From contig OZ024746.1 in the NCBI GenBank assembly GCA_964016885.1, positions 73,346,001 to 73,410,000 of the forward strand: a DNA stretch of 64,000 bases, in the 5' to 3' direction. The notes under the pieces were generated by a model. The model worked only from the letters and a program-made list of their open reading frames with translations. It was not told where the DNA came from and did not search any database. Below are positions 54,549 to 59,549 of the stretch, piece after piece (within the stretch, counting starts at the first letter, position 1; each line of letters opens with the position of its first letter). The DNA is from Eledone cirrhosa (taxonomy: Eukaryota). Made by a program: the position numbers and the translations under genes.

Positions 54549-54983
54549 ATTCGAGGTTGACTTTACCTTTCATCCTTACGGGGTCGATAAAATAAAGTAC
54601 CAGTAATGCACTGGGTAATTGCTGGCCTTGTGCCTAAAGTAGAAACAATTATTATTAAAGGACTTGAACATCTGAAACTACTTCGCTTTTCCTTATTCGA
54701 TATTTACTCCGTCACTCCTATGTGGAATAAGTACGTTGAGTGCTTGAATTGAATTGCATCAATATTTACCCTAAGTATATATATATATATATATAGATAA
54801 TTTAATATATCAACTAACATAAGCGCACAGATGCACGCCCATGCCAGCAAATACACAGGTTATGTCATAGTACCTAGGTGGTTCAATGCAGGAGAATGCA
54901 GAACAATAATATAAAGGACGTAAAATAAAAAAATATTTTTTTAAAAAAAATTTAAAAAAAATTTTTTTCTTACTTAAATTTTC

Positions 54984-55065
54984 ACTCCAACTAATTAGTT
55001 TCTGCAATGGGATAAAGACAGTTACGTAATTCAACTGTCGAGAATTCATTGCGTCATCAGGAAGT
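54984..55065 (-). ncRNA. Array hammerhead (identical copies at 55542-55623, 56100-56181, 56658-56739, 57218-57299, 57776-57857)
   Basis: Reverse complement of the 58597-58678 motif. Confidence 0.85.
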
Positions 55066-58000
55066 CTATTCTCAGTTAAGTCTCCAGGCAATGCGCGGAC
55101 ACTGGCGGCTCATATAAAAATAATAATAATTCGGTAGATCGAACAGCTTGCGAGGACTGAATTCTATGTACCGAAATTCTCACTGCTTCAAGTCAAATGG
55201 CCGATTCTAAAGAATCAATCACGTGACACAGAGGCTAGTTAGAAGGAATGGGATGGTAAGATGACTGACGCCTACTAACACCCCAAAAAAAATTTTTTTA
55301 GAAGTGGTTTTGACAAGTTTGCTCGACAAATCAGTGATTTGGAGATAAATATAGATAATTTAATATATCAACTAACATAAGCGCACAGATGCACGCCCAT
55401 GCCAGCAAATACACAGGTTATGTCATAGTACCTAGGTGGTTCAATGCAGGAGAATGCAGAACAATAATATAAAGGACGTAAAATAAAAAAATATTTTTTT
55501 TAAAAAAATTTAAAAAAAATTTTTTTCTTACTTAAATTTTCACTCCAACTAATTAGTTTCTGCAATGGGATAAAGACAGTTACGTAATTCAACTGTCGAG
55601 AATTCATTGCGTCATCAGGAAGTCTATTCTCAGTTAAGTCTCCAGGCAATGCGCGGACACTGGCGGCTCATATAAAAATAATAATAATTCGGTAGATCGA
55701 ACAGCTTGCGAGGACTGAATTCTATGTACCGAAATTCTCACTGCTTCAAGTCAAATGGCCGATTCTAAAGAATCAATCACGTGACACAGAGGCTAGTTAG
55801 AAGGAATGGGATGGTAAGATGACTGACGCCTACTAACACCCCAAAAAAAATTTTTTTAGAAGTGGTTTTGACAAGTTTGCTCGACAAATCAGTGATTTGG
55901 AGATAAATATAGATAATTTAATATATCAACTAACATAAGCGCACAGATGCACGCCCATGCCAGCAAATACACAGGTTATGTCATAGTACCTAGGTGGTTC
56001 AATGCAGGAGAATGCAGAACAATAATATAAAGGACGTAAAATAAAAAAATATTTTTTTAAAAAAAATTTAAAAAAAATTTTTTTCTTACTTAAATTTTCA
56101 CTCCAACTAATTAGTTTCTGCAATGGGATAAAGACAGTTACGTAATTCAACTGTCGAGAATTCATTGCGTCATCAGGAAGTCTATTCTCAGTTAAGTCTC
56201 CAGGCAATGCGCGGACACTGGCGGCTCATATAAAAATAATAATAATTCGGTAGATCGAACAGCTTGCGAGGACTGAATTCTATGTACCGAAATTCTCACT
56301 GCTTCAAGTCAAATGGCCGATTCTAAAGAATCAATCACGTGACACAGAGGCTAGTTAGAAGGAATGGGATGGTAAGATGACTGACGCCTACTAACACCCC
56401 AAAAAAAATTTTTTTAGAAGTGGTTTTGACAAGTTTGCTCGACAAATCAGTGATTTGGAGATAAATATAGATAATTTAATATATCAACTAACATAAGCGC
56501 ACAGATGCACGCCCATGCCAGCAAATACACAGGTTATGTCATAGTACCTAGGTGGTTCAATGCAGGAGAATGCAGAACAATAATATAAAGGACGTAAAAT
56601 AAAAAAATATTTTTTTAAAAAAAATTTAAAAAAAATTTTTTTCTTACTTAAATTTTCACTCCAACTAATTAGTTTCTGCAATGGGATAAAGACAGTTACG
56701 TAATTCAACTGTCGAGAATTCATTGCGTCATCAGGAAGTCTATTCTCAGTTAAGTCTCCAGGCAATGCGCGGACACTGGCGGCTCATATAAAAATAATAA
56801 TAATTCGGTAGATCGAACAGCTTGCGAGGACTGAATTCTATGTACCGAAATTCTCACTGCTTCAAGTCAAATGGCCGATTCTAAAGAATCAATCACGTGA
56901 CACAGAGGCTAGTTAGAAGGAATGGGATGGTAAGATGACTGACGCCTACTAACACCCCAAAAAAAATTTTTTTAGAAGTGGTTTTGACAAGTTTGCTCGA
57001 CAAATCAGTGATTTGGAGATAAATATAGATAATTTAATATATCAACTAACATAAGCGCACAGATGCACGCCCATGCCAGCAAATACACAGGTTATGTCAT
57101 AGTACCTAGGTGGTTCAATGCAGGAGAATGCAGAACAATAATATAAAGGACGTAAAATAAAAAAATATATTTTTTTAAAAAAAATTTAAAAAAAATTTTT
57201 TTCTTACTTAAATTTTCACTCCAACTAATTAGTTTCTGCAATGGGATAAAGACAGTTACGTAATTCAACTGTCGAGAATTCATTGCGTCATCAGGAAGTC
57301 TATTCTCAGTTAAGTCTCCAGGCAATGCGCGGACACTGGCGGCTCATATAAAAATAATAATAATTCGGTAGATCGAACAGCTTGCGAGGACTGAATTCTA
57401 TGTACCGAAATTCTCACTGCTTCAAGTCAAATGGCCGATTCTAAAGAATCAATCACGTGACACAGAGGCTAGTTAGAAGGAATGGGATGGTAAGATGACT
57501 GACGCCTACTAACACCCCAAAAAAAATTTTTTTAGAAGTGGTTTTGACAAGTTTGCTCGACAAATCAGTGATTTGGAGATAAATATAGATAATTTAATAT
57601 ATCAACTAACATAAGCGCACAGATGCACGCCCATGCCAGCAAATACACAGGTTATGTCATAGTACCTAGGTGGTTCAATGCAGGAGAATGCAGAACAATA
57701 ATATAAAGGACGTAAAATAAAAAAATATTTTTTTAAAAAAAATTTAAAAAAAATTTTTTTCTTACTTAAATTTTCACTCCAACTAATTAGTTTCTGCAAT
57801 GGGATAAAGACAGTTACGTAATTCAACTGTCGAGAATTCATTGCGTCATCAGGAAGTCTATTCTCAGTTAAGTCTCCAGGCAATGCGCGGACACTGGCGG
57901 CTCATATAAAAATAATAATAATTCGGTAGATCGAACAGCTTGCGAGGACTGAATTCTATGTACCGAAATTCTCACTGCTTCAAGTCAAATGGCCGATTCT

Positions 58001-58596
58001 AAAGAATCAATCACGTGACACAGAGGCTAGTTAGAAGGAATGGGATGGTAAGATGACTGACGCCTACTAACACCCCAAAAAAAATTTTTTTAGAAGTGGT
58101 TTTGACAAGTTTGCTCGACAAATCAGTGATTTGGAGATAAATATAGATAATTTAATATATCAACTAACATAAGCGCACAGATGCACGCCCATGCCAGCAA
58201 ATACACAGGTTATGTCATAGTACCTAGGTGGTTCAATGCAGGAGAATGCAGAACAATAATATAAAGGACGTAAAATAAAAAAATATTTAGTTGATATATT
58301 AAATTATCTATATTTATCTCCAAATCACTGATTTGTCGAGCAAACTTGTCAAAACCACTTCTAAAAAAATTTTTTTTGGGGTGTTAGTAGGCGTCAGTCA
58401 TCTTACCATCCCATTCCTTCTAACTAGCCTCTGTGTCACGTGATTGATTCTTTAGAATCGGCCATTTGACTTGAAGCAGTGAGAATTTCGGTACATAGAA
58501 TTCAGTCCTCGCAAGCTGTTCGATCTACCGAATTATTATTATTTTTATATGAGCCGCCAGTGTCCGCGCATTGCCTGGAGACTTAACTGAGAATAG

Positions 58597-58678
58597 ACTT
58601 CCTGATGACGCAATGAATTCTCGACAGTTGAATTACGTAACTGTCTTTATCCCATTGCAGAAACTAATTAGTTGGAGT
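58597..58678 (+). ncRNA. Array hammerhead in the inverted arm (second copy 59155-59236)
   Basis: acttc-CTGATGA-c gcaatg aattctc gacagtt gaattacgt aactgtc tttatcc cattgc a-GAAA-ctaattag-TT-ggagt. Confidence 0.85.
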
Positions 58679-59549
58679 GAAAATTTAAGTAAGAAAAAAA
58701 TTTTTTTTAAATTTTTTTTAAAAAAATATTTTTTTATTTTACGTCCTTTATATTATTGTTCTGCATTCTCCTGCATTGAACCACCTAGGTACTATGACAT
58801 AACCTGTGTATTTGCTGGCATGGGCGTGCATCTGTGCGCTTATGTTAGTTGATATATTAAATTATCTATATTTATCTCCAAATCACTGATTTGTCGAGCA
58901 AACTTGTCAAAACCACTTCTAAAAAAATTTTTTTTGGGGTGTTAGTAGGCGTCAGTCATCTTACCATCCCATTCCTTCTAACTAGCCTCTGTGTCACGTG
59001 ATTGATTCTTTAGAATCGGCCATTTGACTTGAAGCAGTGAGAATTTCGGTACATAGAATTCAGTCCTCGCAAGCTGTTCGATCTACCGAATTATTATTAT
59101 TTTTATATGAGCCGCCAGTGTCCGCGCATTGCCTGGAGACTTAACTGAGAATAGACTTCCTGATGACGCAATGAATTCTCGACAGTTGAATTACGTAACT
59201 GTCTTTATCCCATTGCAGAAACTAATTAGTTGGAGTGAAAATTTAAGTAAGAAAAAAATTTTTTTTAAATTTTTTTTAAAAAAATATTTTTTTATTTTAC
59301 GTCCTTTATATATATATATATATATATATATATATATACAGTATATATATATATATATATATATATATATATATATATATATATATATATATATATATAT
59401 ATATATATATATAGGAAAATGTATGACCCCGACGGCAGAGCTCAAGCCGTCGGGGTCATACATTTTTCTATTACCCACTCTACTACCCTAAGTATTGAGT
59501 ACTCTAGTGCGTTATGGTCTATATGGTTCCTTACCACGACTCCTTCGTT

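Follow-up and report, generated by a model that had tools for sequence, protein, structure and literature searches.

Animal retrozymes of the non-LTR type (LTR, long terminal repeat) are non-coding, low-GC, head-to-tail units with one type I hammerhead each, found as dispersed multimers in genomes that also contain Penelope-like elements (PLEs) (PMC7229834; 10.64898/2026.07.22.740005). RNA circles have been shown for them and rolling-circle copying of the circle has been proposed (Cervera 2014, PMC4209133, where 'more-than-unit' circle-templated copying is already suggested for PLEs; Cervera 2020, PMC7229834). In the passages of these papers covered here, however, the tie to PLEs consists of co-occurrence and pseudo-LTR (pLTR) homology, the circular-template model comes without insertion-level evidence, and fixed two-site termini, inverted arms with one site each and (TA)n targeting are not described. 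The endonuclease-bearing (EN+) PLEs, especially Anolis Poseidon (PMC11167929) and the Neptune, Naiad and Hydra elements (PMC8557442), are known for two internal start sites, a tail at one end, an inverted 5'-truncated arm, tandem copies, a (TA)n bias and a ribozyme just upstream of the termini. In the 64,000-nucleotide stretch of the Eledone cirrhosa genome analysed here (the window; contig OZ024746.1), a 4.5-kb array (54791-59311) within a (TA)n run shares the sequence features listed for both groups, and differs from EN+ PLEs in lacking an open reading frame (ORF), in a tail of 119 nt rather than 30-40, and in holding, across its family, up to ~14 units per insertion. The array belongs to a young, dispersed non-LTR retrozyme family with thousands of copies and at least three subfamilies; it is probably one insertion of a non-coding retrozyme, written by a PLE reverse transcriptase/endonuclease from a predicted 558-nt circular RNA. 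The element class is thus a known one (a non-LTR retrozyme with a variant ribozyme), and it is the anatomy of its insertions that offers new evidence on PLE mechanism.

An initial annotation of the window had described near-identical 558-nt units without a credible ORF, six pointing left and two pointing right of a junction at about 58288, and this description holds. Identity among the units is 99.6-100%, the six complete cut-to-cut monomers (five on the minus strand, one on the plus strand) are told apart only by an AT insertion and, at the edge of a homopolymer, a single T>A change. Of the eight CUGAUGA...GAAAC cores, the minus strand carries six and the plus strand two; these are ribozyme counts, the arms themselves containing ~6.3 and ~1.8 units. 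The palindrome ACTAATTAGT occurs at 54990, 55548, 56106, 56664, 57224, 57782, 58663 and 59221, and the last templated bases are 54791 and 59311, with (TA)n beyond both. The longest ATG ORF of the unit (79 aa) is lost in both older subfamily units and was rejected as coding sequence because it is not conserved, and the reverse transcriptase (RT) plus GIY-YIG ORF expected of an autonomous PLE is absent from the unit. The suggestion that 558 nt is unusually long does not hold, since published units span 51-972 bp, with a mean of 650, in ray-finned fish (in the part covered of Li, Clavereau & Pollet 2026, 10.64898/2026.07.22.740005).

The family is not a single-locus satellite, as the annotation had anticipated. 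In the 3.0-Gb assembly the 558-nt unit gave 302 matches at the best 40 of 663 candidate places, on many chromosomes and with 98-100% identity among the matches listed, and a 23-mer across the cut site matches the genome exactly 8,808 times (control, 0). Three subfamilies of 558, 538 and 524 nt were distinguished (identity 81% and ~70%). Low-depth contigs of sequencing runs X22 and X23 were not taken as evidence of other hosts, and an 'opposite strand' joint in them is an effect of the inverted query stretch. In the portions of the literature searched, neither the family nor two-site retrozyme termini nor reiteration of repeats by PLEs is described, and the word 'ribozyme' is absent from an Octopus vulgaris repeat paper; either the family or the pairing rule described below may be listed in the Craig 2021 or Li 2026 supplements or in repeat libraries.

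The ends of the insertions were read at 40 loci (the window and 39 others), pieces below 92% identity and blocks shorter than 300 nt being excluded from the counts. All 71 arm 3' ends, from 41 blocks, lie at one of two sites 119 nt apart in the unit, site A (~79 nt past the cut) or site B (~198). The other TATAT-type sites of the unit (179/180 and 431) are never used. The annotation's statement that both ends stop at an internal TATAT and run into (TA)n holds for the flanks and needs changing for the ends, which are two fixed sites and are not permuted between loci. Thirty of the 41 blocks are two-armed, and all 30 combine A with B (p ~1e-9 compared with a coin flip); in the other 11 blocks a single arm is present (8 A, 3 B). 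As a check on this choice of top-scoring loci, ends on chromosome 1 (100 B, 47 A) were also paired by terminus pattern, in a test that is largely independent (2 of its pairs were already in the first set). The 31 outward pairs comprise 30 A+B, no A+A and one B+B (p ~1e-8), with a median insertion span of ~1 kb end to end. The lone B+B insertion (G000:C1:62767320-62768382) has CT runs at both ends. Genome-wide, the terminus patterns find 660 B ends and 302 A ends, the B pattern also catching intermediate subfamilies. The inner ends, by contrast with the constant termini, are scattered round the unit; arm lengths are uncorrelated, and each locus has its own junction, mostly with 0-5 nt of overlap and in some cases with short templated inserts.

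Judged on sequence, fixed ends, one per arm, in (TA)n are the signature of a PLE 'tail'. The 119-nt stretch between A and B is read as such a tail because an inverted copy truncated at its 5' end and a one-ended tail of 30-40 bp count among the hallmarks of PLEs (Craig 2021, PMC8557442, passages covered), and because in vitro two internal RNA start sites delimit the tail, with cleavage and extension of the two target strands by a predicted dimer (Frangieh 2024, PMC11167929, likewise). Two fixed termini, a tail at one end, an inverted 5'-truncated partner arm and a (TA)n target make it very probable that a PLE is involved in retrozyme insertion, in line with the mobilisation by PLEs, and the use of either side of the (TA)n site as a primer, proposed in the annotation. 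One difference concerns strand use: the enzyme in the covered part of the Frangieh study has no strand preference between start sites, whereas the two retrozyme arms almost always use different sites.

The internal variation of the arrays bears on the template. In 159 full copies, with A/T runs excluded, copy pairs differ by 0.22 substitutions within an arm and 0.28 between opposite arms, but by 1.88 between loci. Locus-by-site tests for four common polymorphisms are homogeneous in 135 of 136 cases, and cut-site junctions are seamless in 228 of 229. Rare variants number 39: 24 singletons, 4 mosaics and 11 that are fixed across their locus (10 of them in both arms, with as many as 10 copies). 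For a mutation of a single copy to occupy both arms of an insertion of 7-10 copies, a monomer stage is required, and rolling-circle copying would provide it in one step. Locus-wide private variants that span both arms therefore favour a monomer circle as the template; this agrees with the monomer-derived template put forward in the annotation, and we regard a circle as the likely form of the RNA that is copied.

The ribozyme of the array appears, from its sequence, to be a type I hammerhead variant and not the canonical motif, because a C·A mismatch replaces the pair at positions 10.1/11.1. The annotation called it a complete type I hammerhead; the core (C3-A9, G12-A14, A15.1-U16.1), stems I-III and an NUH cleavage site (GUU, predicted at 58671-58673) are present, and the exceptions are this mismatch and the result of an Rfam scan, in which no hammerhead model matched at E<=1 over 7 kb or at E<=10 over one motif. 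The Rfam matches that were obtained, a TA-repeat miRNA and chance matches, were discarded. On paper, stem I consists of ACUUC/GGAGU, an internal loop and ACUUAA/UUAAGU, stem II of GCAAUG/CAUUGC plus a second 7-bp helix, and the palindromic stem III is predicted to have 3 bp as a monomer and to form a 10-bp duplex (-9.0 kcal/mol) as a dimer. The parsing pattern presupposed a core and a stem III that are close to intact; among the 293 motifs it yielded, CUGAUGA is conserved in 284 and GAAA in 288, and C·A stands at the base of stem II in 290, with a G-C pair next to it. Three PLE families of the same genome have U·U at the matching position. This arrangement recalls the PLE minimal hammerheads, in which A9 is typically followed by one unpaired base and then G-C, and which have a long helix II and a palindromic stem III suited to dimeric cleavage (Cervera & de la Peña 2014, PMC4209133, passages covered); the retrozyme motif differs from them in that G12 is preceded by an extra A, stem I has two parts and an internal loop, and a 3-bp monomeric stem III is possible, and from published retrozymes, as far as covered, in lacking the 10.1-11.1 pair and in being known from DNA. 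Stem II occurs in three mutually compensated versions (GCAATG/CATTGC in 222 motifs, GTAATG/CATTAC in 34 and GAAAGG/CCTTTC in 25) around an invariant core; these pairs were counted by pattern, because MAFFT puts a 1-nt shift of the third subfamily in the wrong place, and are raw counts not weighed against shuffled controls. Three subfamilies that keep the core while compensating stem II would count against decay of the ribozyme. The circular fold of the unit has z scores of -3.5 and -6.0 relative to 40 shuffles.

From these observations a course of events can be proposed. The tandem array would be transcribed and its hammerheads would excise monomers, probably aided by dimeric stem III, which would be ligated into circles. 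A PLE protein, likely a dimer, would cleave each strand of a (TA)n run, with cDNA synthesis starting at site A on one strand and at site B on the other; each enzyme would travel round the RNA circle a variable number of turns, and the two cDNAs would be joined at a random point, one-armed insertions being those in which only one cDNA is retained. The loci record directly the fixed ends, the A+B pairing, the (TA)n flanks, the random inner junctions and the locus-wide haplotypes, and spread as a circular RNA copied by a PLE enzyme is considered likely because the insertions end at two fixed points like those of the coding PLEs of this genome. Hundreds of near-identical insertions thus make ends, arms and private mutations readable like an experiment, in which the family shows the two-start-site signature of PLEs, with one site per strand, and favours a monomer template.

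Several observations weigh against this course of events. The 40 loci are the top scorers of 663 candidates and are biased to long, young arrays. The four mosaic variants (for example in three copies in both arms of L043, and in adjacent pairs in L046 and L048) would call for several templates or for conversion at a later time. The isolated motif reaches its lowest energy (-20.6 kcal/mol) in a structure other than the active one (-16.7), and C·A at 10.1/11.1 together with a GUU site may slow cleavage. No alignable pLTR homology was found between the retrozyme and 36 PLE-bearing loci (of 10,597 candidates). In the published data covered, one of nine predicted retrozymes cleaved and eight were inactive (Li 2026, 10.64898/2026.07.22.740005), and PLE insertion in vitro did not need ribozyme cleavage, the main substrate being unprocessed RNA (Frangieh 2024, PMC11167929). 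Local expansion would also be compatible with the array structure alone. In the mosaic arrays (L043, L046, L048, L064 and L066) linked variants recur, in both arms in L043 and L066; as regards the periodicity expected of a circular multimer, L043 has no short period, and L066 has a period of 5 that rests on two indel marks only.

One rival template is an uncleaved linear multimer primed at two sites by a PLE, the arms being uniform because the parent arrays were uniform or because of later unequal crossing-over. The dispensability of ribozyme cleavage in vitro, the weak-looking core, the variants shared by adjacent copies in L046 and L048, and the local amplification proposed by Li 2026 (in the parts covered) all suit it, and single-unit bottlenecks should be common, because the median chromosome-1 insertion is only ~1 kb. 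It nevertheless seems unlikely: loci differ by ~2 substitutions, yet as many as 10 copies of a locus, in the one inverted arm and the other, share a fixed private variant, arrays 100% identical to that of the window already contain at least 6 units, the inner ends of the two arms are unrelated, unlike those left by L1-style twin priming on one linear RNA, and the ribozyme helices are preserved by compensation. Jumping of the enzyme end to end between cleaved linear monomers, rather than circling of one RNA, would account for the mosaic loci L043 and L066 and for the short templated inserts at some inner junctions, but is improbable given that cut-site junctions are exact in all but one case, that each array is uniform in a genome with several coexisting haplotypes, and that the 5' ends of arms show no accumulation at the cut site. 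A local satellite or assembly artefact could be entertained for the window, where no contig listed in the sequencing-run search spans the junction at 58287-58288, which thus rests on the assembly. For the family this explanation is refuted by the matches on many chromosomes, by the thousands of cut-site motifs with none in the control, and by junctions that differ per locus between constant termini; depth is also high in run X19, and we give the explanation almost no weight. Copying of a monomer circle by a PLE enzyme is accordingly preferred.

The enzyme may come from a PLE of the same genome. A search for GIY-YIG domains gave the 10,597 candidates mentioned above, and a CxxxxCxxC linker marks several RT plus endonuclease families that carry ribozymes of their own and terminate at A/B ends within (TA)n; by motif, on which alone the clade is judged, they would be of Neptune/Nematis type. 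One family is young and intact, with 87 scored copies at 98-100% protein identity, of which ~54 (by eye) have a stop-free 775-aa RT-endonuclease frame. Its tandem unit is 4.2 kb long and its inverted pairs are A+B in (TA)n in 9 of 9 cases. The retrozyme and this family have TATCTATAT in common at the B site, a low-complexity match with E 9e-4 in a tiny search, and no homology beyond it was found. This family is the best candidate partner, with about an even chance of being the actual one, and its presence makes the mechanism testable in vitro. In one copy (L184, G000:C1:147237000-147243700) an ATG-started upstream frame precedes a separate 775-aa frame that has no starting ATG and is of constant length in dozens of copies, possibly reflecting an intron or programmed frameshifting; in a related family (L104) the frame is a single fused one of 1,096 aa. 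The Hydra-type PLE of the window likewise gave no homology to the retrozyme.

A further feature is confined to site B. In the older 538-nt subfamily CTCT adjoins this site, and genome-wide 166 of its B ends have at least 5 CT units compared with 7 that run straight into TA, ends with 3-4 units being left out of this count. Twenty loci selected for a CT run have 5-32 units, always with (TA)n next; 19 of their far ends could be read (11 A-ended arms, 8 one-armed; 1 not reached) and none has a CT/AG run, on which ground a compound (TA)n(CT)n target was rejected for this subfamily. Seven B ends in loci selected otherwise have 6-22 units. As a control for later slippage, the A end of the 524-nt subfamily, where (TC)3 lies beside (AT)n, has no long runs and one extra unit in 100 ends (the first 100 of 1,195 matches; an inexact control, as site and subfamily differ from those under test). 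The first 100 B ends found by terminus pattern include 7 with CT runs and 7 with extra TATC (by eye), and one B end of the 775-aa PLE family has both.

The restriction of extra (CT)n to B ends suggests stutter of the reverse transcriptase, that is, reiterative copying at initiation at one start site. Short template words beside the start site are reiterated in the 3' repeat growth of long and short interspersed elements (LINE/SINE) by template slippage and in repeat addition by telomerase; here the reiteration would occur at one of the two internal start sites of a PLE-type element, and would suggest that telomerase's closest eukaryotic relative synthesises repeats reiteratively, which offers a way for microsatellites to arise. 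A broader and more tentative reading, which we hold to be possible but doubtful, is that the insertions record the action of the PLE enzyme as such: its dimer would assign A and B to opposite strands, circle the RNA both ways and reiterate the template word at B before elongation, therefore making new microsatellites (5-32 CT units), and it may lengthen (TA)n runs, which serve as its own targets.

The features of the array are collected in the following table.

Features of the retrozyme insertion in the window (positions in the 64,000-nt stretch)
Feature	Position	Strand	Remark
Complete two-armed retrozyme insertion in (TA)n run, ~8.1 units	54791..59311	.	
Left arm, ~6.3 units	54791..58288	-	sense 3' end = site B (unit ~198); inner end = unit 51
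Right arm, ~1.8 units	58287..59311	+	start = unit 172; sense 3' end = site A (unit ~79)
119-nt 'tail' between sites A and B, this terminus only	54791..54909	-	putative second reverse-transcription start; tail definition PMC11167929
Site A terminus	59295..59311	+	
Inversion junction, overlap 2 nt	58287..58288	.	unit position 51 joined to 172
Reference 558-nt monomer between two predicted cleavage sites	58674..59231	+	
(TA)n flank, left target half	54776..54790	.	
(TA)n flank, right target half	59312..59413	.	
Hammerhead motif 1	54972..55081	-	
Hammerhead motif 2	55530..55639	-	
Hammerhead motif 3	56088..56197	-	
Hammerhead motif 4	56646..56755	-	
Hammerhead motif 5	57206..57315	-	
Hammerhead motif 6	57764..57873	-	
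Type I hammerhead motif 7	58581..58690	+	core 58602-58608; C·A at 10.1/11.1; GAAA 58660-58663; palindromic stem III; predicted cut after 58673
Hammerhead motif 8	59139..59248	+	

Two stretches of the unit stand out (unit ~320-335 and ~425-436, window 58993-59008 and 59098-59109): TCACGTGA is identical in the three subfamily units, and a TATA-like word lies ~50 nt upstream of the ribozyme core, similar boxes occurring in the PLE repeats of the genome; the conserved box and the TATA-like word are a possible internal promoter. Short inserts of other (TA)n-associated families adjoin the array (59413-59550 and 59706-59797), the former resembling a tiny two-armed insertion, and pieces related to them recur in the flanks of L036, L039, L043, L044, L111 and L126. 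To the left of the array, a putative SINE motif near 54560-54650, taken with the repeat content, would suit an octopus host. Elsewhere in the window, 763-3602 is a two-armed inverted PLE with a C-terminal endonuclease and CxCX5C, CxxC and CxH motifs, of the Hydra clade by the Craig 2021 definition as covered here; it has no Pfam match, and its 3' regions extend beyond the window start and to ~4825. Ribozyme-bearing ends of other PLE families lie at 10509(-), 10605(+), 46416(-), 62365(+) and 14253(+), four of them with a U3-A8 core variant, and 35748-39003 is a 3.3-kb CA-rich minisatellite of period 37/72.

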